Source: Escherichia phage vB_EcoP_EP32B
DNA: 64,000 nt
Strand: one strand, 5' to 3'
Sequence record: OR544955
Shown here: in pieces, positions 16,375-46,115 of the stretch
Numbering within the stretch: the first letter of the stretch is position 1
Layout: each line of letters starts with the position of its first letter
The notes under the pieces: generated by a model
What the model was told of the DNA's origin: nothing
Seen by the model: only the letters and a program-made list of their open reading frames with translations
Databases searched by the model: none
Made by a program: the position numbers and the translations under genes

Positions 16375-19059
16375 ATGAAAGAATTTTACTTAACGGTTGA
16401 ACAGATTGGTGATTCAATTTTTGAACGTTACATCGATTCTAATGGCCGTGAACGTACTCGTGAAGTAGAATATAAACCATCACTGTTTGCTCATTGTCCA
16501 GAAAGTCAGGCTACGAAATATTTCGATATCTACGGTAAGCCGTGTACTCGTAAGTTGTTCGCTAATATGCGTGATGCCTCCCAATGGATTAAACGTATGG
16601 AAGATATCGGACTTGAAGCACTTGGCATGGACGATTTCAAATTGGCGTATTTGTCTGACACTTATAACTATGAAATCAAATACGACCATACAAAAATTCG
16701 TGTGGCTAACTTCGACATCGAAGTAACATCTCCGGACGGGTTCCCTGAGCCGTCACAAGCAAAACATCCGATTGATGCTATCACCCATTATGACTCAATT
16801 GACGACAGGTTCTACGTATTTGATCTATTGAATTCTCCATATGGTAATGTAGAAGAATGGTCTATCGAAATTGCAGCTAAGCTTCAAGAACAAGGTGGTG
16901 ATGAAGTTCCATCCGAAATTATCGATAAAATCATTTATATGCCGTTCGATAACGAAAAAGAATTGTTGATGGAATATCTCAACTTCTGGCAACAGAAAAC
17001 TCCTGTCATTTTGACTGGATGGAACGTTGAGTCATTTGATATTCCATATGTGTATAACCGAATCAAGAATATTTTTGGCGAATCTACTGCGAAACGTTTA
17101 TCACCACATCGTAAAACTCGTGTTAAAGTTATCGAAAACATGTATGGTTCTCGTGAAATCATTACATTGTTCGGTATCTCTGTTCTTGATTATATTGACC
17201 TTTACAAAAAATTCTCTTTTACCAATCAACCGTCGTATTCTCTGGATTACATTTCAGAATTTGAATTGAACGTTGGTAAACTGAAATACGACGGTCCTAT
17301 TTCTAAACTTCGTTATAACATCATCGACGTATATCGTGTATTGCAAATTGATGCTAAACGCCAGTTCATTAACTTGAGTTTGGACATGGGTTATTATGCT
17401 AAGATACAGATTCAATCTGTGTTTAGCCCAATTAAAACATGGGATGCTATTATTTTTAATAGCCTTAAAGAACAAAACAAGGTGATTCCACAAGGTCGTT
17501 CGCATCCAGTTCAACCTTACCCGGGTGCTTTTGTTAAGGAACCTATTCCAAATCGATACAAATATGTAATGAGTTTCGACCTTACATCTCTGTATCCAAG
17601 TATTATTCGCCAAGTGAATATTAGCCCGGAAACAATAGCAGGAACGTTTAAAGTAGCTCCACTGCATGATTATATTAACGCAATCGCTGAACGTCCTTCA
17701 GATGTGTACAGTTGCTCTCCTAACGGCATGATGTATTATAAAGACCGTGACGGTGTTGTTCCAACTGAAATCACTAAGGTCTTTAATCAACGTAAAGAAC
17801 ATAAAGGTTATATGCTTGCAGCTCAACGTAATGGTGAAATAATTAAAGAGGCATTGCATAATCCTAATCTTTCTGTTGACGAACCATTAGATGTTGATTA
17901 TCGTTTCGACTTCAGCGATGAGATTAAAGAAAAGATTAAAAAGTTGTCTGCTAAATCTCTTAATGAAATGTTGTTTAGAGCTCAACGTACTGAAGTTGCA
18001 GGTATGACTGCACAGATTAACCGTAAATTGCTTATCAACTCACTTTATGGTGCACTTGGAAACGTTTGGTTCCGTTATTATGATTTGCGTAATGCTACTG
18101 CAATCACAACATTCGGACAAATGGCTTTACAGTGGATTGAACGTAAAGTTAATGAATATCTGAATGAAGTTTGCGGTACAGAAGGTGAAGCTTTCGTTCT
18201 TTATGGTGATACAGACTCTATTTACGTATCTGCTGATAAAATTATCGATAAGGTTGGTGAATCTAAATTCCGTGATACCAACCATTGGGTAGACTTCTTA
18301 GATAAGTTCGCTCGTGAACGTATGGAACCTGCTATTGATAGAGGTTTCCGTGAAATGTGCGAATACATGAATAATAAGCAACATTTGATGTTCATGGACC
18401 GAGAAGCTATCGCTGGTCCTCCGCTCGGTTCTAAAGGTATTGGTGGATTTTGGACTGGTAAGAAACGTTATGCATTAAACGTGTGGGATATGGAAGGTAC
18501 TCGTTACGCTGAGCCTAAACTCAAAATCATGGGTCTAGAGACTCAGAAATCTTCGACACCTAAAGCAGTACAGAAAGCTCTTAAAGAATGTATTCGTCGT
18601 ATGCTTCAAGAAGGTGAAGAATCATTACAAGAATATTTTAAAGAGTTTGAAAAAGAATTCCGTCAATTGAATTATATTAGCATCGCGTCGGTATCTTCTG
18701 CGAATAACATTGCTAAATATGATGTCGGTGGATTCCCTGGCCCCAAATGTCCGTTCCATATTCGTGGAATTCTGACATATAACCGAGCTATCAAAGGTAA
18801 TATCGATGCACCGCAAGTTGTAGAAGGTGAAAAAGTATATGTTCTGCCTTTACGTGAAGGAAACCCATTCGGTGATAAATGTATCGCATGGCCTTCTGGT
18901 ACGGAAATCACTGATTTAATCAAAGATGATGTACTTCATTGGATGGACTACACGGTTCTCCTTGAGAAGACATTTATTAAACCACTTGAAGGATTCACAT
19001 CAGCAGCTAAACTCGATTACGAGAAGAAAGCATCTCTGTTCGATATGTTTGATTTTTGA
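16375..19059 (+). CDS. 43: DNA polymerase gp43 (family B, RB69-type numbering)
   Basis: 894 aa; Exo I FDIE (D114/E116), D222, YGDTDS, KILINSLYG; strong match to recalled RB69 gp43. Confidence 0.97.
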   Translation: MKEFYLTVEQIGDSIFERYIDSNGRERTREVEYKPSLFAHCPESQATKYFDIYGKPCTRKLFANMRDASQWIKRMEDIGLEALGMDDFKLAYLSDTYNYEIKYDHTKIRVANFDIEVTSPDGFPEPSQAKHPIDAITHYDSIDDRFYVFDLLNSPYGNVEEWSIEIAAKLQEQGGDEVPSEIIDKIIYMPFDNEKELLMEYLNFWQQKTPVILTGWNVESFDIPYVYNRIKNIFGESTAKRLSPHRKTRVKVIENMYGSREIITLFGISVLDYIDLYKKFSFTNQPSYSLDYISEFELNVGKLKYDGPISKLRYNIIDVYRVLQIDAKRQFINLSLDMGYYAKIQIQSVFSPIKTWDAIIFNSLKEQNKVIPQGRSHPVQPYPGAFVKEPIPNRYKYVMSFDLTSLYPSIIRQVNISPETIAGTFKVAPLHDYINAIAERPSDVYSCSPNGMMYYKDRDGVVPTEITKVFNQRKEHKGYMLAAQRNGEIIKEALHNPNLSVDEPLDVDYRFDFSDEIKEKIKKLSAKSLNEMLFRAQRTEVAGMTAQINRKLLINSLYGALGNVWFRYYDLRNATAITTFGQMALQWIERKVNEYLNEVCGTEGEAFVLYGDTDSIYVSADKIIDKVGESKFRDTNHWVDFLDKFARERMEPAIDRGFREMCEYMNNKQHLMFMDREAIAGPPLGSKGIGGFWTGKKRYALNVWDMEGTRYAEPKLKIMGLETQKSSTPKAVQKALKECIRRMLQEGEESLQEYFKEFEKEFRQLNYISIASVSSANNIAKYDVGGFPGPKCPFHIRGILTYNRAIKGNIDAPQVVEGEKVYVLPLREGNPFGDKCIAWPSGTEITDLIKDDVLHWMDYTVLLEKTFIKPLEGFTSAAKLDYEKKASLFDMFDF

Positions 19060-19099: not shown

Positions 19100-19408
19100 A
19101 TGAAAACTACTCCTATTACTATCGCTATTGACGCAATCATAAAACAAGCTTCTTCTTTGGCCGCTATGGCCAAAGTAATTAGTCAAAACCCTGCTCGTTA
19201 TAATGCTATTCTAGAAACTCTTCGACGCCCTGGACTGAGTAATTATGAAAGTCGTGTAATTATTACAGGTGTTGGTAAGAACGCTAATATCGCAACTAAA
19301 GCTTCCGAGACATTTGCTTCACTCGGTATCCCGAGTATGTACTTGAACACTGGGCATTATTCTCACGGTGATGCAGGATTCATTGCGCCTAATGAGGCAT
19401 CGCGGTAG
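19100..19408 (+). CDS. KdsD/GutQ-like SIS-domain sugar-phosphate isomerase, N-terminal part (gene frameshifted, continues 19396-19575)
   Basis: ITGVGKNANIATK..TFASLGIPS..HGD; downstream frame has LAPTMSTT and HPGGALG. Confidence 0.6.
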   Translation: MKTTPITIAIDAIIKQASSLAAMAKVISQNPARYNAILETLRRPGLSNYESRVIITGVGKNANIATKASETFASLGIPSMYLNTGHYSHGDAGFIAPNEASR

Positions 19409-19575
19409 AGGTTGATGAGAATTCTCTGGCTCCGACAATGTCTACTACATTGTTGTTAGCGCTTATCGATACGTTCGCTATCAACCTTTCGTCTGAACGT
19501 GGATTTACCTCTAATGATTTCCTTAAGTTCCATCCAGGCGGTGCACTAGGTGCCATGTTACGAGGCGAACAATGA
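19396..19575 (+). pseudogene. C-terminal segment of the SIS isomerase in the -1 frame
   Basis: open frame from 19396 encoding GIAVEVDENSLAPTMSTT...GFTSNDFLKFHPGGALG, no start codon. Confidence 0.55.
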
Positions 19576-19756: not shown

Positions 19757-21442
19757 ATGAAAAAAGCTGTTATTCTTGGTGCTGGACTGGCAACTCGTTT
19801 GTATCCAATAACGCATCATATTCCAAAAGTTCTTGTGAACTATAAACAAGACACTATTCTGAGCAATTTGTATACAATTTATTCTGACCTTGGCGCAGAT
19901 GAAATTATTGTAGTAGTTCATTCAAAATTTGCTGAAACTGTTCGAGCTTATTGTGAGCAAGAAGGGTTCAATGTGACTATTCGTACAGTTGATGAAGCGT
20001 ATGGTTCTGCTTATGCTCTTGCTAAATTACACAAAGATTTAGATGGCCATAACGTAATTGTTAACTGGTGTGATATTATTCCTGATTTTGGTTCATGGTC
20101 TTGGAATGTTAATGCAATCTATGTTAAGGGTGACGAATGTCGATATAATTTTGACGGTGAAAATATCACTAACGTAGGTTCAACAGGTGGTAATGTTGTA
20201 GGAATTTATCAGTTCAAAGACTGGGAATTCTACATGGGTTCTACTGATGAGGAAATTCACGAATACTGCAAAGGTCGTGATTTCGTAGAATTCCTTTACG
20301 GCAGCGCATTCAATAAATCAGAGCTTATGAATCTAATTGATTTAGGTGATATGCCTAAACTTGAAAAAGCTCATGAAGTTCGTGAACTTAATCGTAGTTT
20401 TAATGCAGTTGAAATTGGTGAAGAAACTGTAACTAAATTCGCATTAACCGAACAAGGTCGAGCTCTTCAAAAAGATGAGATTTCATGGTATTTGAAAGTG
20501 AAATCAGATTCAGTTCCTCAGTTAGTTTCGGTAAATGAAAATAATTTTGAAATGGAACGCATTAAAGGTAAGCCGGCATTTGAATATATTAAATCCAAAT
20601 CAAGTCTTGCTCGTCCACAAATTGTTGATGCAATTTTAGATGCACTGAAATTCAGCACAGACACTTATTTTGTAAGTCCTGAAACTGTTCGTCGTGATTT
20701 CACTAAAGAATTCTATACGAAAGTTATTGATCGTTGTGAAAGCATTCAGCCATTGATTGATTCATTTGGTAAAATCACACACGTGAACTACACTAAGATT
20801 GGACGTCTGAAGCCAATGCTGAAGCAAGCTTTAGAACATCTTATTCGTTATCATACCCGTTCTCAGGGACAGTACTCTGTTATTCATGGTGACCCGAACT
20901 TCAGTAATACTATGATTACTGATAATGGCGAAGTCAAGTTTATCGACCCTCGTGGATATTTTGGCGAAACCAAGATTTACGGGCCAAAATTGTACGATGA
21001 AGCTAAAGTGCTTTATGCTGTTTCAGGTTATGATGAATTCAACGCTAATCCGACCTGGGGACAGTTTACTATTGACGAAACAACTTGTAATGTGACTATT
21101 AACATCAATCCATTAGTTTACAAATATGGAAAGATGAGTTCGTTTAACGAGTATCATCATTTGGCTGTAGCAATTATCTGGATTGCATTAGGTGGTTATT
21201 TCAAGAATAATCCACTTAAAGCGGTAGCCGCATATTATAAAGGTATGGAACTTCTGACTAAGCAATTACGTAACATGGGCCGTGTACTTCAAGACGGCTC
21301 TATTAGTTATGACGTAGCAGAACCTGTAACGGCTACTCTGATTACAAAAAATCCTGGTAAATGGGTACTAACTGATAAAGAAACTGGTGTTTCTTATCGT
21401 CCAATCGGTGGCGATATCACTCATCAATGGGAACGAATCTAA
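19757..21442 (+). CDS. bifunctional sugar-1-phosphate nucleotidyltransferase / sugar kinase (APH-choline-kinase-like)
   Basis: N-term GAGLATRL; C-term HGDPNFSN catalytic loop and IDPRG; 561 aa. Confidence 0.75.
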   Translation: MKKAVILGAGLATRLYPITHHIPKVLVNYKQDTILSNLYTIYSDLGADEIIVVVHSKFAETVRAYCEQEGFNVTIRTVDEAYGSAYALAKLHKDLDGHNVIVNWCDIIPDFGSWSWNVNAIYVKGDECRYNFDGENITNVGSTGGNVVGIYQFKDWEFYMGSTDEEIHEYCKGRDFVEFLYGSAFNKSELMNLIDLGDMPKLEKAHEVRELNRSFNAVEIGEETVTKFALTEQGRALQKDEISWYLKVKSDSVPQLVSVNENNFEMERIKGKPAFEYIKSKSSLARPQIVDAILDALKFSTDTYFVSPETVRRDFTKEFYTKVIDRCESIQPLIDSFGKITHVNYTKIGRLKPMLKQALEHLIRYHTRSQGQYSVIHGDPNFSNTMITDNGEVKFIDPRGYFGETKIYGPKLYDEAKVLYAVSGYDEFNANPTWGQFTIDETTCNVTININPLVYKYGKMSSFNEYHHLAVAIIWIALGGYFKNNPLKAVAAYYKGMELLTKQLRNMGRVLQDGSISYDVAEPVTATLITKNPGKWVLTDKETGVSYRPIGGDITHQWERI

Positions 21443-21828
21443 TGCACCGTGTAGAAAACATGCTTAATCTTTGTTTTGATGTCGATGATTGTATAACAGA
21501 GTGGAATAACAATCGTGATTACGTGAACTTCAAACCAGACGTCGAAATGGTGACTGCTATTAATGCCCTGTATGATGCAGGGCATACCATAACGCTTTAC
21601 ACTGCTCGTGGTATGAAGTCAGTAGGTCCTGGTCGTATAGCAATTGACATTCTCCCAAGTCTGATTCAGAACTTGGAAAACATTGGTTTGAAGTACCATA
21701 ATTTGCTAACACATAAACCAGTATATGATTGGATTATCGACGACAAAGCTATGCGTCCCGACGAATTCAAAGCTCTTATGAATAAAGGCGAATTCGAAAC
21801 ATTTAAATCATATAAACCGAATCTATAA
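21442..21828 (+). CDS. HAD-superfamily phosphatase
   Basis: motif I FDVDDCIT (DxDxT); TAATG coupling. Confidence 0.65.
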   Translation: MHRVENMLNLCFDVDDCITEWNNNRDYVNFKPDVEMVTAINALYDAGHTITLYTARGMKSVGPGRIAIDILPSLIQNLENIGLKYHNLLTHKPVYDWIIDDKAMRPDEFKALMNKGEFETFKSYKPNL

Positions 21829-21884
21829 TAATTTAAGTAAGACCTGCAAAAACCATCGCATAAATTAACGTGAGATGCAAAAAA

Positions 21885-23045
21885 ATGAATACTTTTAAAA
21901 TTGGAACGAATTTTGATTTAGCTCTTCTTGATAAAATCGTAGAGCTCAATAAAACTTATCCTAATAGCTTGATAAACGAAGTATACGGCTCTACAAGAGA
22001 AATGGCTTTTGTAGCAGCCAGACCTGATTTTAGGCTTCCTGACGTTGACAAAAAGATGTTAGAAGATTACGTTAAACGTTGTAACGAATTAGGTATTTGC
22101 TTTAACTATACACTCAACACGATAAATCCTGGTTCAAAAAGAGAACTAGTCGAGTGGAAGAAGAAAGCTATTCAGGATTATGTTCAGTATCTTTGGTCAA
22201 TAGGCGTATGGCGTATTACTATCGCTAACCCTGTTGTTATGGAAATTGTTCGTGAAGTCAATAAAGACATTGAGATTGAAGTTTCAACAATTCTACATGT
22301 CGATGCTGTAACTCAAATAAAATACTTGCATGACCAATATAATATCAAAAAGGTCTGCTGTGGAATTCATAAGAACCGTTCAGTTTCTTTCCTGAAGCGT
22401 GCAGCAGAGTTTTGCAATAAGAACAATATAATATTTGAAGTTCTTGTAAATGAGTTCTGTTCTAATGCTGGTAAAGGGTATACAACACATTGTAGCTATC
22501 GTGACTCTTGCTATATTTTCCATAGTACTGATGTTACAGCCGATGATGCTAAATCCTTAAACGGGTATCCTATGCAGCACTGTATTAAAGCTCGTGATAC
22601 AGACCCATTTAACTGGTTGAGAACTCGTTTTGTTCGTCCTCAAGATTTGAAACTTTATAATGATATTGGTATCACTCAATTCAAAGTTTCAGGACGTACA
22701 GGTAGCACAGACTACATTTTGAAAGTTCTTGAAGCATACGCTTCTGAAAAGTTTGAAGGTAATTTGTTAGAACTGTGGAAGCCTTTAGAGACTATTTTCA
22801 CTCTTGAAAATGAAACTGAGTTTTCACATACAGTAAATATTGAAACCTCTTTGTTAGATGGCTTTTTAGAAAAAAGGTGGTTCAGACATCCAGATTTTGA
22901 TTGTGCTAATGAAATCTGTGGATCAACGTGTACATATTGTGAAAGATATTATAAACGTCAATTATCTAAAAACGGGTTAGCAGAAAACTCTATATCTATT
23001 ATTGATATAACTAACTCTGATGACGCTTTGAGGTACCCGGAATGA
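21885..23045 (+). CDS. hypothetical protein with Cys-rich C-terminus; faint peptidase-U32-like motif
   Basis: 386 aa; NEFCSNAGKGYTTHCS and CANEICGSTCTYC. Confidence 0.5.
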   Translation: MNTFKIGTNFDLALLDKIVELNKTYPNSLINEVYGSTREMAFVAARPDFRLPDVDKKMLEDYVKRCNELGICFNYTLNTINPGSKRELVEWKKKAIQDYVQYLWSIGVWRITIANPVVMEIVREVNKDIEIEVSTILHVDAVTQIKYLHDQYNIKKVCCGIHKNRSVSFLKRAAEFCNKNNIIFEVLVNEFCSNAGKGYTTHCSYRDSCYIFHSTDVTADDAKSLNGYPMQHCIKARDTDPFNWLRTRFVRPQDLKLYNDIGITQFKVSGRTGSTDYILKVLEAYASEKFEGNLLELWKPLETIFTLENETEFSHTVNIETSLLDGFLEKRWFRHPDFDCANEICGSTCTYCERYYKRQLSKNGLAENSISIIDITNSDDALRYPE

Positions 23046-23323
23046 TTTCTAGAAAAACTTTTAATCACCAACTTAATGAAGAGATTTTGACTATTAAAAT
23101 TAACACTAACGAACAAATTCTTAAAAAGGCCCTTATGGGCCTGTTTGAAACTAAAGCGGCTAAAGTGATTAAAGAACCTGTTCAATTGGAATACTACGCT
23201 GATGCATTTCTTCATAGTGTTCTTGGAAGTATCGATGCTGAAGCTTTACGTTATATCAACATTGTCAAGAAATTCAAATAAGCTTTACGAATTGAGTATA
23301 TAATAAATTGTATTGAGGTAAAC

Positions 23324-24040
23324 ATGGGAAAACATAACACAATGAAATATATCAAAGCCGCAGATTTTCAAACCGCATTTAAAGCAGTCAATCGTGAAAT
23401 TTTAGAAAACCCGGAATTCGTAACTGATTCTCGTATTGGACGTTGTAATGAAATTGGGTCTATGACAGTAGTTGTTGACACTCCATCATCATTCAAAATG
23501 ACCGACCCGCGTATTAACCGCATCTCTTATGAATATGCCGAAGACTTCTGGAAGTTTATGATTTCTGGTGGTACTGACGCAGAAGAAGCGTTTAAGGCAT
23601 ATCCTAATGTCGCTAAATTTATTTCTAAACCAAAATCAGATGCTTTGCCTGCAAACTTCAACACTTTCTATGGTCCTCGCATTGCGGCCCAATTACCAGC
23701 TCTTCTAAAAGAACTTAAAGAGAAGCCTAACTCCAGAAGAGTTGTGTTCCAAATTCTAGAAAGTTCTGATCAGGCTTTGCTTGATTCGGACGAAACGCTT
23801 GAATATCCATGTACTGACTCAGTGACTTATTATATTCGTGACGGTAAGCTTTATACCCACTGTCATATGCGTTCCCAGAACTGTGCTGTTGTTATGCAGT
23901 TGGATTTTTATCTCCAAGGAAAATTACTTCATTATATCGCTAACGAATGCGGTGTAGAAGTTGGTGATTATACTCATACCATGGTAAGTGCCCATGTGTT
24001 TGAACGTGATTTTGATTATGTTAAAGGATTCCTTGACTAA
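23324..24040 (+). CDS. thymidylate-synthase-family deoxypyrimidylate hydroxymethylase (gene 42 position)
   Basis: NSRR, catalytic Cys in YPCT, MRSQN..D; RBS GAGG. Confidence 0.65.
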   Translation: MGKHNTMKYIKAADFQTAFKAVNREILENPEFVTDSRIGRCNEIGSMTVVVDTPSSFKMTDPRINRISYEYAEDFWKFMISGGTDAEEAFKAYPNVAKFISKPKSDALPANFNTFYGPRIAAQLPALLKELKEKPNSRRVVFQILESSDQALLDSDETLEYPCTDSVTYYIRDGKLYTHCHMRSQNCAVVMQLDFYLQGKLLHYIANECGVEVGDYTHTMVSAHVFERDFDYVKGFLD

Positions 24041-24939
24041 TGGCTATTTTCCGCGTACCAATCTTGAGTATGCGGTCTTATGAAACTGGTCAGTATGCTA
24101 TCCTTAAGGATGGCAACTTCCAACTTCATTTGCACCGTGCTAATCCGGGTGATGTGATTACATATCCACGTAATGCATCTGATATTAAAGAATGCGAACG
24201 TCTTTTTCCGGAATTTAAGTTTGTTCCATTATGGTATAAAGATAACGCGTATAACACTCGTAAATATTTCTGGTCTGAAAATGAATTTGTGGTTGATTCA
24301 TTAATTGCTTATTATGATTGTGATTTTCTAATCACAGATATCACTGGTTATGATGGCGCTTTTGACGTAGAATTCAATTTCAATATCACTGCAGACCCTA
24401 ATAAACCACGTTTTTATATTGATGAATTCTTAAAAACTGATATGTTGTCGGTTAATCGTTCACTTCAAACTACTGTGTTGAATGAACGTCAAAAAGAAGT
24501 GCTGGTTAACGCAGGTGCAGATGGTAATAAGATTATCGTAACGCAGAAAGTTATACGTCCTTCCGTCATGCAGCGTCTTGTAGGTGATTTGGCTCCTATT
24601 CATCTAGATGGTATTTTTCATCCATTTCGAATTAGTGACCCATGCTATCGTTTTGAACAAGTGGTTGAATGCGCAATTCAATTAGGTCAACCGCTTTATA
24701 TAACTGATCCAAATAATAGTTTCGACAGAAATAAGTATCCTGAAGAAGCGCTGATTCGAATTTTTAATCCAACTAAAACTGAGTACTATCAAATTCTTAA
24801 AGGACGTCCGAAGATTCAATATTTCGAAAATCCTGAAGAAGTATTCCATCCAGGTCTTGGTGAGTTCATCTACTTTAATGCTTTAATTTCTTCACCGTAT
24901 AATATACCTAAATACGAAGATGTCGTAATCGAGGAATAA
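24040..24939 (+). CDS. hypothetical protein (beta-gt position, no recognisable motifs)
   Basis: 299-aa ORF coupled ATGGCT after TAA. Confidence 0.5.
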   Translation: MAIFRVPILSMRSYETGQYAILKDGNFQLHLHRANPGDVITYPRNASDIKECERLFPEFKFVPLWYKDNAYNTRKYFWSENEFVVDSLIAYYDCDFLITDITGYDGAFDVEFNFNITADPNKPRFYIDEFLKTDMLSVNRSLQTTVLNERQKEVLVNAGADGNKIIVTQKVIRPSVMQRLVGDLAPIHLDGIFHPFRISDPCYRFEQVVECAIQLGQPLYITDPNNSFDRNKYPEEALIRIFNPTKTEYYQILKGRPKIQYFENPEEVFHPGLGEFIYFNALISSPYNIPKYEDVVIEE

Positions 24940-24940
24940 A

Positions 24941-25489
24941 ATGGCTAAAATTATTTTAGTAGACGGGCCGGATAATGCTGGTAAAACAACTTTCATTAAT
25001 GACATAATGGAAATTAGTGAAAGATATGTAAAGATTGATTTCCCTAAACGAACAGTTGATGGGCGTTTCGATGTTAAGTCTCGAAATGAAGTCGGCTGTT
25101 TCGAAACGATGTTGAATTATTTGGACCCTACTAAGATTTATCTGTTAGACCGTGGATATATTAGTAACTGGGTTTATGGACGTATTCGACAAGATGTGGA
25201 CTCGGTTCTTGACGTTTATGAACAGGATTATGTTCGTCTTTGCCAAAACCATGATGTGTTCACAATTATTTTAACACGTAACGAAATGACTGAAAGTTTT
25301 GAAGACGACCTTATTACTTTGTCTTCATTCGGTTTTAATACAGTCATTTCATATTTTGAAGAGTTTGCAATTCATAACAAAATCCAAACGTATCAATTAC
25401 TTAATCATGATGGTGCTAATAAAGTTATAGGATTTAACGCAAGCGAACGTAATAATTTGATTACAGAAATCATCAAATGGGCTCGTTAA
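24941..25489 (+). CDS. P-loop nucleotide kinase-like protein
   Basis: ILVDGPDNAGKTTF Walker A; 182 aa. Confidence 0.6.
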   Translation: MAKIILVDGPDNAGKTTFINDIMEISERYVKIDFPKRTVDGRFDVKSRNEVGCFETMLNYLDPTKIYLLDRGYISNWVYGRIRQDVDSVLDVYEQDYVRLCQNHDVFTIILTRNEMTESFEDDLITLSSFGFNTVISYFEEFAIHNKIQTYQLLNHDGANKVIGFNASERNNLITEIIKWAR

Positions 25490-29382: not shown

Positions 29383-29633
29383 GCAAATTAACTAAGGTTA
29401 CTTTTATCGGTTGGTTTAAAAGCGGTGAGATGTTCACTAAAGATATCATGTTATCAGGTGATCGCGAAGAAATCGAGTGGGTTACGGTACAACTTGCTGA
29501 AGTGAACAAAGCATTAGTTAAAGCGTTTGTTAATGACGAGAAAGTTTTTGAAGCTGATTTCAAGTTTAAAATAGCTGTTTACAAGCCCCACATATTGTGT
29601 TACTATCTTTCTATCAACTACAGAGGAAATTGA
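29379..29633 (+). CDS. hypothetical protein
   Basis: ATGA coupling. Confidence 0.45.
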   Translation: MSKLTKVTFIGWFKSGEMFTKDIMLSGDREEIEWVTVQLAEVNKALVKAFVNDEKVFEADFKFKIAVYKPHILCYYLSINYRGN

Positions 29634-33313: not shown

Positions 33314-33628
33314 ATGGCGCACTTTAATGAATGTTCACAACTTATTTCTGGTGTTGATAAAGCAGAAGAAGCTTATTTTAATGCTCTGATTCACGAAGAT
33401 AAAGACCCACTTCAGGTAATGCTTGATATGCAGAAATCTTTACAGGTTCGTCTGGCAAATGACAAGCCTGAACATAACAAACATCCTGATGAATTGGCTA
33501 CTGCCGGTGATGTTGTTGATTGGCTGCGTAATCAGAAAGATTATATTGATGATGAATTCCGTGAACTGTTGACTTCACTTGGTGGTATGATTATAAATAC
33601 ACCTGTAATTAAACAACAAAGGAGTTAA
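33314..33628 (+). CDS. MazG-like all-alpha NTP pyrophosphatase (gene 56 dCTPase-like), possibly short
   Basis: 104 aa; DDEFRELL motif; position after 61. Confidence 0.45.
   Translation: MAHFNECSQLISGVDKAEEAYFNALIHEDKDPLQVMLDMQKSLQVRLANDKPEHNKHPDELATAGDVVDWLRNQKDYIDDEFRELLTSLGGMIINTPVIKQQRS
33592..33599 (+). promoter_or_regulatory. late promoter TATAAATA for soc
   Basis: exact TATAAATA about 32 nt upstream of soc ATG. Confidence 0.7.
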
Positions 33629-33630
33629 TT

Positions 33631-33774
33631 ATGGGTGGTTATGTAAACATCAAAACCTTTACGCATCCTGCTGGTGAAGGCAAAGAAGTTAAAGGTATGG
33701 AAGTTTCTGTACCGTTTGAGATTTATTCAAACGAACATCGGATTGCTGATTCTCATTACCAAGTAAGTGGTTAA
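33631..33774 (+). CDS. soc: small outer capsid protein Soc, short form (47 aa)
   Basis: MGGYVNIKTF..EVSVPFEIYSNEHRIADSHYQ resembles recalled T4/RB69 Soc N-terminal half. Confidence 0.6.
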   Translation: MGGYVNIKTFTHPAGEGKEVKGMEVSVPFEIYSNEHRIADSHYQVSG

Positions 33775-45030: not shown

Positions 45031-45621
45031 ATGAAAGTTATGTTTATCCCATCTCGCGCAGTCCCATTTAATCCTGACCGTGTACAAGGTGGACTTGAAG
45101 CAGTACATTTAAATGTGTTGAAATATTTAGTTTCTATCGGTGCCGATATTGATTATATTGGTTTTGATAATGACACATTTGGTGATTGGAAGGTTAATCA
45201 TCATCCTGTTGGTCATCTGACTAAATTCAGTCTAGGTATGAGTTATACTATGGCCCGTAAGATTGTTGAACTAGCCGGCATCCATGAATACGATTTTGTT
45301 GTTACTATGGAACCGACTAAACTAACCGTCCAAGCAATTAAAGATGCTGGACTCTCTAAAGTTCATAAGAATTTTATGGCAACACCGTTTGAACCGGTAT
45401 CTCGTGGCATTGTTCAAATTTGGGACCAGACTATTCAAATTCATAAGAATGGTGGTAAGAGTTATGCTCCTACTAAAGCCTTCCGTGAATTTGAACGTAA
45501 ATATTGTTATATGACTTCAGGTCTGACTGACAAAATTGATTATGATTATTGGCGAGCAAATCCGTTGTTTGAAGCCGAAGATTATCCGGTTATTTGTTTG
45601 AATGAGAAACCTGAGATCTGA
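45031..45621 (+). CDS. GT-B-fold glycosyltransferase, N-terminal domain (gene split by frameshift)
   Basis: MKVMFIPSRAVPFNPDRVQGGLE..; ends NEKPEI. Confidence 0.55.
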   Translation: MKVMFIPSRAVPFNPDRVQGGLEAVHLNVLKYLVSIGADIDYIGFDNDTFGDWKVNHHPVGHLTKFSLGMSYTMARKIVELAGIHEYDFVVTMEPTKLTVQAIKDAGLSKVHKNFMATPFEPVSRGIVQIWDQTIQIHKNGGKSYAPTKAFREFERKYCYMTSGLTDKIDYDYWRANPLFEAEDYPVICLNEKPEI

Positions 45622-46115
45622 TTATTAGTGCACAACGTTATGACACTAAAATGCGTCGTACTGATGTTGCTCTTGAAGCGATTAAAGCACTAGGCGAAAA
45701 TGGTGCAGGATACTGTCCAAGCAAATGGGCACCACCAGCTAAATATCCTGTTATTATTGATGCTCAACACAGTGAAATCATGGAACGTCTTAAAACAGCT
45801 AAAGCACTTATTAATACGTGTCCTGACACAGGTACGGTAGAGAATAGTTCTATTGAAGCCATCTCTAAAGGTGTCCCTGTAATCCAGTTAGTTTTTAAGG
45901 ATTATCCTCATGCGACATTCGAATACGACCCAGATACTGTGCGTGTAGAAATTGATTCCTCTACTCCTAAGAAAGAAGTAGTTGCGCTTTACACAAAAGC
46001 TGTATTAGAATTCACTGACACATACGAAGCTCGAGTTAAACGTGCTGAAGCAGTATGGAAGAAGTATAATCGAGATGCAGTTGTTGCGATGTGGGATAAA
46101 ATCTTCACAGCGTAA
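45615..46115 (+). CDS. GT-B-fold glycosyltransferase, C-terminal domain (-1 frame; first ATG at 45651)
   Basis: frame open from 45615: DLIISAQRYDTKMRRTDVALEAIKAL, typical of GT4 C-domain start. Confidence 0.55.
   Translation, partial: DLIISAQRYDTKMRRTDVALEAIKALGENGAGYCPSKWAPPAKYPVIIDAQHSEIMERLKTAKALINTCPDTGTVENSSIEAISKGVPVIQLVFKDYPHATFEYDPDTVRVEIDSSTPKKEVVALYTKAVLEFTDTYEARVKRAEAVWKKYNRDAVVAMWDKIFTA

Follow-up and report, generated by a model that had tools for sequence, protein, structure and literature searches.

The DNA of phage RB69 contains mono- and di-arabinosylated 5-hydroxycytosine (5hoC), in which, according to nuclear magnetic resonance (NMR), an ether oxygen bound directly to C5 carries the sugar (Lee et al. 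NAR 2026, PMC13326640). This DNA was first reported as arabinosyl-hydroxymethylcytosine (PMC6024577), an assignment now called erroneous (PMC13390438). When the RB69 enzyme gp48 is expressed in E. coli, 5-hydroxy-dC (5hodC) appears in DNA; the enzyme makes 5-hydroxy-dCMP (5hodCMP) with an oxygen that originates from 18O2 and purifies with a loosely bound flavin resembling flavin mononucleotide, whereas T4 gp42 in the same assay gives 5-hydroxymethyl-dC (5hmdC; PMC13326640). For the homolog of phage HY126, a structure with bound flavin and a reconstituted reaction are described by He et al. (Nat Chem Biol 2026), as cited in PMC13326640. Lee et al. proposed Asn at the position of Asp169 in ThyA (D169N) as diagnostic of this chemistry, and Asp at the position of ThyA Asn177 is given there as an established cytosine determinant (PMC13326640, citing its refs 46, 58, 60, 61). 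Here we analyze the corresponding locus of Escherichia phage vB_EcoP_EP32B (record OR544955), positions 23324-25489 of the 64,000-nt stretch that was studied (the window). This span comprises three genes, encoding a thymidylate synthase (TS)-fold enzyme, a GT-B glycosyltransferase (GT1) and a P-loop kinase, and very probably represents the core of the arabinosyl-5-hydroxycytosine DNA hypermodification pathway of Mosigviruses, with its synthase, Tmk-fold kinase and GT1 steps.

The window derives from a Mosigvirus, an RB69-like T4-type phage, and over 150 phage records, O157 typing phage 3 and BASEL phage AlbertHofmann among them, match the 5.9 kb around the three genes with 98-98.6% identity. 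The plus-strand gene order is DNA polymerase, a broken arabinose-5-phosphate isomerase, a 561-aa nucleotidyltransferase/kinase, a 133-aa phosphatase, a U32-family protein, a 79-aa open reading frame (ORF), the TS-fold ORF, a 299-aa ORF (GT1), the P-loop ORF, uvsX, gene 40 and gene 41. The TS-fold gene thus occupies the gene-42 slot, between gene 43 and uvsX, and the three-gene span is intact and collinear with RB69, Bas47 and HY126. The TS stop codon overlaps the GT1 start codon (TAATG), only 1 nt separates GT1 from the kinase, and the three genes are packed for coupled translation. An earlier note, made from the sequence alone, had proposed that a TS-fold enzyme and a kinase clustered with it belong to a phage pathway for non-canonical pyrimidine nucleotides, and this is supported. 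Its description as an enzyme-kinase pair was correct for both folds, but it overlooked the GT-B gene between them, so that there are three genes and not two. The spacer upstream of the TS-fold gene contains GCTTTA (23282-23287), 11 nt, TATAAT (23299-23304) and, 5 nt before the ATG, GAGG (23315-23318). We take GCTTTA-N11-TATAAT to resemble a T4 MotA-dependent middle promoter (MotA-box/-10 consensus) and GAGG to be a putative ribosome-binding site. It is possible that such a promoter makes TS-GT1-kinase a separate transcription unit. A generic sigma-70 scan gave sites no more numerous than in shuffled controls, and the terminator scan was likewise uninformative.

In sequence, the protein encoded by the TS-fold ORF is the same as RB69 gp48 (100% identity), and it shows only 3 substitutions (235/238 identical) relative to the HY126 structure (PDB 9IQC/9IR2/9IQU). 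It matches Pfam PF00303 (E=2.4e-15, 56.9 bits, cutoff 24.3), and its matches in PDB are also TS. In the alignment, residues E160, C163, N186 and D194 correspond to ThyA positions 143, 146, 169 and 177. C163 is the equivalent of the ThyA nucleophile C146, in an invariant column, and the phosphate ligands R138, R139, R183 and S184 are kept. The results show that this E/C/N/D signature is present in 11/11 gp48-type proteins, aligned from Mosigvirus to the 30% identical enzyme of Rhizobium phage RL38J1, whereas T4 gp42 has D/C/D/D; the Asn at the ThyA Asp169 position, likewise found in all 11, is Asp in both T4 gp42 and ThyA. In addition, the folate-contact residue Trp80 of ThyA, still Trp in T4 gp42, is Ala (A97), and the gp42-type folate-site residues at ThyA positions 169 and 80 are thus absent from the TS-fold ORF. 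Consistent with the divergence from T4 gp42 noticed earlier, the two proteins are 25% identical (E=7e-13), and a search with the gp48-type enzyme at E<=1e-20 returned no gp42-type Tequatrovirus record among the matches listed. Because of its identity to RB69 gp48, for which assays are published, and its E/C/N/D signature, the TS-fold ORF is, as judged from its sequence, a flavin/O2-dependent 5-hydroxy-dCMP synthase and not a hydroxymethylase. The earlier note also held that sequence could not decide between dCMP and dUMP; dCMP specificity can in fact be read from Asp194, which occupies the position of the cytosine determinant (PMC13326640). Four residues suffice to call the 5-hydroxylation chemistry correctly, while the mislabelling of the enzyme persists in GenBank, where many records name gp48-type proteins thymidylate synthase or dCMP hydroxymethylase.

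The P-loop ORF is 98% identical to RB69 gp45, for which Lee et al. give no more than the label "nucleotide kinase", based on structural matches (PMC13326640). In the fold comparison, Tmk accounts for all of its six best matches. The P-loop GxxxxGK(S/T) (G9-K15-T16) and the motif DR(Y/H) (D70-R71) never vary in the family and line up with E. coli Tmk, and in a profile alignment of the two (probability 81%) the P-loop, the DR motif, the FFN motif and R113 with the first LID Arg pair up. The invariant positions of the family are G9/D11/N12/G14/K15, F34-P35-K36, D70-R71, S75/N76/Y79, R113 and F120-x-D122-D123-L124-I125. The clustered kinase probably does the same job as T4 gp1 (PDB 1DEK) and RB69 gp159, phosphorylating modified dCMP, but these show no detectable sequence similarity to it and are not among its fold matches, and gp159 is encoded about 50 kb away, outside the window. 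The earlier note was right that the kinase is not of the gp1 type. It had named a standard gp42 ortholog and an unrelated ATPase as the findings that would speak against it; the first does not hold for the enzyme, and the kinase has a genuine nucleoside monophosphate (NMP) kinase fold, an outcome that we grade as mixed.

Among the phage records matched, the gp45-type kinase is confined to 5-hydroxypyrimidine-type clusters, and it is found in 343 records compared with 373 for the gp48-type TS. The kinase/TS counts per host genus are 176/176 for Escherichia, 57/57 for Acinetobacter, 25/26 for Klebsiella, 15/15 for Shigella, 9/9 each for Enterobacter and Serratia, 7/7 for Proteus and 6/6 for Yersinia. 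The surplus TS records belong to Rhizobium and Agrobacterium phages, in which the kinase is too diverged for detection. In Rhizobium phage RL38J1 the TS-GT-kinase order is kept and gp214 matches the kinase family marginally (hhalign probability 51%); the idea that this phage has no gp1-type kinase, which would have made the clustered kinase its sole 5hodCMP kinase, was rejected, as gp219 is annotated as a dNMP kinase. JS98 has the order kinase-TS-GT with overlapping start and stop codons, and in Klebsiella and Proteus phages the kinase lies upstream of U32, so the gene order is shuffled yet the TS/GT/kinase trio persists. The corresponding region of T4 has no gp45-type kinase gene. On the basis of the near 1:1 co-occurrence with gp48-type enzymes, the clustered kinase may be a dedicated 5-hydroxy-dCMP kinase that acts beside the gp1-type enzyme, and for this exact substrate we consider the chances to be roughly balanced.

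The gene between the enzyme and the kinase encodes a protein with the two-Rossmann GT-B fold that is 98-99% identical to RB69 gp47+46. That gp46:47 transfers arabinofuranose from UDP-arabinofuranose to 5hoC is a published proposal (PMC13326640). GT1 is a single intact ORF in the window, as is the nucleotidyltransferase/kinase further upstream, whereas the RB69 reference splits the former into 46/47 and the latter into 52/53. These single ORFs support the published view that the splits in RB69 are sequencing errors.

Taken in order, the steps of the proposed pathway would be as follows. Cys163 of the TS-fold enzyme would attack C6 of dCMP, no folate one-carbon transfer would take place, and flavin and O2 would place a hydroxyl on C5 to give 5-hydroxy-dCMP, as published for the identical protein. 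The Tmk-fold kinase would presumably turn 5-hydroxy-dCMP into the diphosphate, in parallel to the gp1-type dNMP kinase, after which host nucleoside diphosphate (NDP) kinase would form the triphosphate and the phage polymerase would incorporate it instead of dC. The GT-B enzyme, whose fold is seen here and whose role is proposed in the literature, would take the first arabinofuranose from UDP-arabinose and attach it to the 5-hydroxyl. UDP-arabinose would be supplied by the upstream genes, and the next arabinose would be added by a second transferase encoded elsewhere.

Several observations weigh against these assignments, and most of them concern the kinase. The protein scores under the curated Tmk cutoffs (PF02223, 12.3 bits vs 27; TIGR00041, 16.8 vs 83), it has Asn (N12) in place of the P-loop Arg, and its shortened LID holds a sole Arg, R113, which aligns to the first Arg of KRARAR in E. 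coli Tmk; given N12 and this short one-Arg LID, the sequence does not guarantee catalytic competence. The gp1-type gp159 phosphorylates 5hodCMP to the diphosphate in vitro (PMC13326640), and because gp159 already covers this substrate the clustered kinase could be redundant or use another one. For the glycosyltransferase step, single glycosyltransferases (GTs) showed no activity on 5hoC-DNA, and Lee et al. cannot say whether the first arabinosylation takes place on the mononucleotide or on DNA (PMC13326640). These last points are also the ones that favor glycosylation before replication, in which GT1 would arabinosylate free 5-hydroxy-dCMP and the kinase would be specialized for arabinosyl-5-hydroxy-dCMP, a bulky substrate that a gp1-type kinase would be unable to handle. 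Kinase and GT1 are adjacent and form an invariant pair in Straboviridae, in Pootjesviridae and in unrelated phage contigs of the DnaE type, whichever hydroxylase accompanies them, and this agrees with such a scheme. It is nevertheless at odds with the post-replicative glycosylation that is the paradigm in T-even phages, the later arabinosylations take place on DNA, and 5hodC itself enters plasmid DNA in vivo (PMC13326640). We therefore regard glycosylation before replication as unlikely, with arabinosyl-5-hydroxy-dCMP as the main alternative to 5-hydroxy-dCMP as the substrate of the kinase.

The P-loop protein might instead be a sugar or small-molecule kinase of the UDP-arabinose branch, or a non-catalytic or regulatory partner of GT1. 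This is quite improbable, in that Tmk supplies each of the six best fold matches, the NMP-site motifs of Tmk, DR-x-x-x-S-x-x-x-Y and FP(K/R), are invariant, the sugar branch has a kinase domain of its own in the bifunctional enzyme, and homologs on metagenomic contigs sit among dUTPase, DnaE and uracil-DNA glycosylase (UDG) genes. A dCMP/dUMP hydroxymethylase of the T4 gp42 kind, which makes a hydroxymethyl-dNMP from methylene-tetrahydrofolate (THF) that the kinase then phosphorylates, was the reading of the earlier note, and it could appeal to the TS fold, the catalytic Cys, the acidic residue at ThyA L143 and the Asp at N177, all common with T4 gp42, as well as to the gene-42 position, the old arabinosyl-hydroxymethylcytosine report (PMC6024577) and the many GenBank labels. 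However, the identical RB69 protein yields 5hodC and not 5hmdC, its oxygen comes from O2, the arabinose ether oxygen sits at C5 (PMC13326640), the hydroxymethylcytosine assignment is regarded as an error (PMC13390438), and the equivalents of Asp169 and Trp80 are Asn, the diagnostic N186, and Ala. The published mass-spectrometric (LC-MS), NMR and 18O2 data on the identical protein have already refuted a hydroxymethylase, which we consider hardly credible here. The 5-hydroxycytosine pathway, with a 5-hydroxy-dCMP synthase, a Tmk-fold kinase and GT1, remains the preferred reading of the span.

Table 1. Positions of the three core genes, of neighboring and other pathway features in the window, and of related clusters on metagenomic contigs.
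Feature	Position	Strand	Size, match or remark
5-hydroxy-dCMP synthase (TS fold; RB69 gp48 type)	23324..24040	+	238 aa; Pfam PF00303 and identity to RB69 gp48
GT-B glycosyltransferase, proposed arabinosyltransferase 1 (RB69 gp46:47 type)	24040..24939	+	299 aa
Thymidylate-kinase-fold P-loop kinase (RB69 gp45 type)	24941..25489	+	182 aa
Spacer upstream of TS-fold gene	23282..23323	+	42 nt
U32-family Fe-S protein (RB69 gp50 type)	21885..23045	+	Pfam Peptidase_U32, 42.2 bits (cutoff 22.4)
79-aa ORF (RB69 gp49 type)	23042..23281	+	phrog_8601; overlaps U32 stop codon (ATGA)
Bifunctional sugar-1-phosphate nucleotidyltransferase/kinase (RB69 gp52:53, HY126 AfhE type)	19757..21442	+	Pfam NTP_transferase, kinase-like C-terminal region, NCBIfam matches
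HAD-type phosphatase (RB69 gp51, HY126 AfhF type)	21427..21828	+	NCBIfam TIGR01689 capsule biosynthesis phosphatase, E=2e-13; PMC13326640
Arabinose-5-phosphate isomerase, broken: 102-aa and 45-aa ORFs	19100..19575	+	~160 bp deletion at 19395
dCTPase (T4 gp56 type), first 92/173 codons	33314..33589	+	deletion runs to soc start
Second arabinosyltransferase (RB69 gp3 type), split: 196-aa and 154-aa ORFs	45031..46115	+	16-nt deletion near 45614
U32/GT1-type cluster, contig L023	2939-7086		
U32/GT1-type cluster, contig L024	4495-8000		
U32/GT1-type cluster, contig L025	4552-7089		
U32/GT1-type cluster, contig L026	3459-7086		

Two genes upstream of the TS-fold gene lies a gene for a U32-family Fe-S protein. 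Its mechanically called ORF starts with GTG at 21870, but the homologs begin at the ATG at 21885. In each of the 221 phage records with this gene, that of Shewanella phage Thanatos among them, the protein is at least 80% identical, whereas the identity of the neighboring kinase falls to ~37%. No Acinetobacter phage record has U32, though 57 carry the kinase and the TS, and no Rhizobium or Agrobacterium phages are among the records listed with it. A strict link between the presence of U32 and facultatively anaerobic hosts was rejected, because it holds in one direction only and the E. coli Dhakavirus JS98 also lacks U32. The Thanatos paper does not mention the U32 gene, the table of Lee et al. 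labels gp50 a "sugar or heterocycle reductase" without discussion (PMC13326640), and NCBIfam and PDB give no subfamily assignment. A gene for a Seg-type homing endonuclease has inserted between the phosphatase and U32 genes in the clusters of Winklervirus and Tegunavirus (L008 5352-5990, L009 4424-5062).

In 54 related phage records from more than 10 host genera, U32 is adjoined by a gene with a chorismate-mutase domain, for example at loci L008 (7158-7502), L009 (6447-6740), L010 (6486-6731), L011 (6507-6764) and L012 (6342-6728). The Winklervirus copy passes Pfam CM_2 (44.6 bits vs 27), and U32 and the mutase travel as a pair when the gene order changes. The window has no chorismate mutase gene, and Mosigviruses keep only a small g049-like ORF. 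The product of chorismate mutase is prephenate. It is from prephenate that the U32 enzymes RlhA, which makes 5-hydroxycytidine in 23S rRNA, and TrhP, which has an O2-dependent counterpart, TrhO, derive the hydroxyl group (PMC13602947). The phage protein shares the Pfam U32 domain with RlhA, TrhP and UbiU-UbiV, and the 5-hydroxycytidine of RlhA represents the same ring chemistry (PMC13602947). In an alignment at ~20% identity, C1, C3 and C4 of the RlhA/TrhP/UbiU Fe-S motif align with the phage protein, and C2 is Gly; 10 Cys are invariant in the phage subfamily, including a C-terminal CX4CX3CX2C cluster. Our literature search found no paper that connects the phage U32 gene to prephenate.

The adjacency to chorismate mutase, the chemistry of RlhA and TrhP, the Cys alignment and the metagenomic contexts with GT1 and kinase homologs described below lead us to suggest, tentatively, that U32 could be a second hydroxylase, O2-independent and prephenate-dependent, that acts at C5 in DNA or in a deoxypyrimidine nucleotide. 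It would act beside the O2/flavin route of the TS-fold enzyme, with kinase and GT1 as an invariant core served by either, and we hold this to be somewhat less probable than its negation. By analogy, the pair of U32 and the TS-fold enzyme would mirror TrhO/TrhP for tRNA; such a two-route scheme was not encountered in the literature that was read. A caveat is that JS98-type coliphages do without U32. If the suggestion is true, U32 would be the first of the prephenate-dependent U32 hydroxylases to act on nucleotides or DNA and would explain how phages keep up an O2-requiring DNA modification in the anoxic gut; an anaerobic hydroxylase would also matter for predicting how therapeutic coliphages evade restriction and CRISPR.

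The 79-aa ORF that follows U32 is 44% identical (E=1e-13) to g049 of Yersinia phage phiR1-RT, which lies between U32 and chorismate mutase (L009 6266-6463), and it may be a U32 accessory protein. Its size and slot, like those of the ~75-aa chorismate mutase genes of Klebsiella and Yersinia phages, made it a candidate mini chorismate mutase, but it shows no similarity to them and is a g049 homolog instead. Its homolog in the HY126 record is annotated as 40 aa only (L006 5601-5723).

Relatives of U32 with 48-58% identity are found on phage-like metagenomic contigs amid deoxypyrimidine genes, namely those for dCMP deaminase, dUTPase/dCTP deaminase, Tmk-like kinases, UDG, DnaE and deoxynucleoside kinase with 5'-nucleotidase. 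On four of these contigs, a full-length GT1 homolog (E 4e-9 to 1e-16) directly precedes U32 (on L023 it lies two genes upstream), and on 2 of the 4 a kinase homolog (E ~1e-5) precedes the GT1 homolog. One of the four carries a bifunctional NDP-sugar enzyme (E=6e-49), and one carries a TET-associated-type glycosyltransferase (TAGT) together with UDP-galactopyranose mutase. There is no TS-fold gene within ±6-7 kb of U32 in these contigs, the part of each contig that was visible. This suggests that the unrelated DnaE-type contigs may hold other glycosylated 5-hydroxypyrimidine systems, in which U32 would replace the TS-fold enzyme as the hydroxylase.

Other contigs show U32 in different company. 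On a 466-kb contig (L020 6447-8086) and a related 60-kb contig (L022 6504-8083), a 55-56% identical U32 homolog directly follows dCMP deaminase, near DnaE, UDG and single-stranded DNA-binding protein genes (the 466-kb contig also has a Tmk gene), with a gene for a conserved ~250-aa protein downstream. On an 86-kb scaffold (L021 7001-14428), a U32 homolog is followed by 5'-deoxyribonucleotidase, a PnuC-like transporter and deoxynucleoside kinase and, further along, by a radical SAM/SPASM protein, a second divergent U32 protein and nucleoside deoxyribosyltransferase. This last cluster may serve nucleoside-level modification or salvage.

The genes that would supply and extend the sugar are also present in the window, some of them in damaged form. 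The gp52:53/AfhE-type enzyme is assigned to UDP-arabinose synthesis in PMC13326640, which cites He et al. for this. The deletion in the isomerase gene is absent from RB69, Bas47 and HY126, the best-matching records listed all retain the missing sequence, and the junction at 19395 is common to no phage record among the matches listed. We call a deletion window-specific when it is shared by none of the best-matching phage records listed. The dCTPase deletion (~250-600 bp, junctions ~33590 and 33762) removes the C-terminal half of the protein and truncates soc (33314-33774), and the best-matching records listed carry the missing dCTPase/soc sequence, matching in two pieces. Further window-specific gaps are found at 29562 (~210 bp) and 36065 (96 bp), and the DNA polymerase (16375-19059) is 9 codons shorter than that of Bas47 (894 vs 903 aa). 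A truncated dCTPase is hard to square with a viable cytosine-replacing phage, and an assembly artefact or a defective genome is therefore the likely cause. If the frameshift in the second arabinosyltransferase is real, only mono-arabinosylated 5-hydroxycytosine would be made.

Compared with known systems, the span does not depart from RB69 or HY126. The neighborhood and the E/C/N/D signature are the same as those of RB69 gp48 and the HY126 5-hydroxy-dCMP synthase, there is no material difference, and the gene is another isolate's copy; the finding is a further instance of a system already known and published in 2025-2026, and it adds little that is new. What the locus does bring into focus is the Tmk-fold kinase kept next to GT1, the substrate of which would decide whether any glycosylation precedes replication. 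Compared to Tmk (PF02223), the kinase is 8-18% identical and differs by its shortened LID with one Arg and by the invariant acidic F-x-DDLI motif. The phage U32 protein is 16-22% identical to RlhA, TrhP and UbiU-UbiV, with only a faint NCBIfam match to UbiU; it differs from them by the extra C-terminal Cys cluster and by a context of deoxynucleotides and DNA, not RNA or quinone. GT1 has no sequence similarity to either glucosyltransferase, alpha or beta, of T4 and is unusually compact, and its donor would be UDP-arabinofuranose and its acceptor the 5-hydroxyl rather than the 5-hydroxymethyl group (PMC13326640). T4 gp42 shares with the window enzyme the TS fold, the Cys nucleophile, the Asp at the base-discriminating position, the acidic residue at ThyA L143, the genome slot and a DNA glycosyltransferase gene next to it, but it uses methylene-THF and forms a 5-CH2OH product, whereas the gp48 type uses flavin and O2 and forms a 5-OH product (PMC13326640). 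Overall, the gp42, gp1 and glucosyltransferase scheme of T4 works alike and occupies the same genomic slot.

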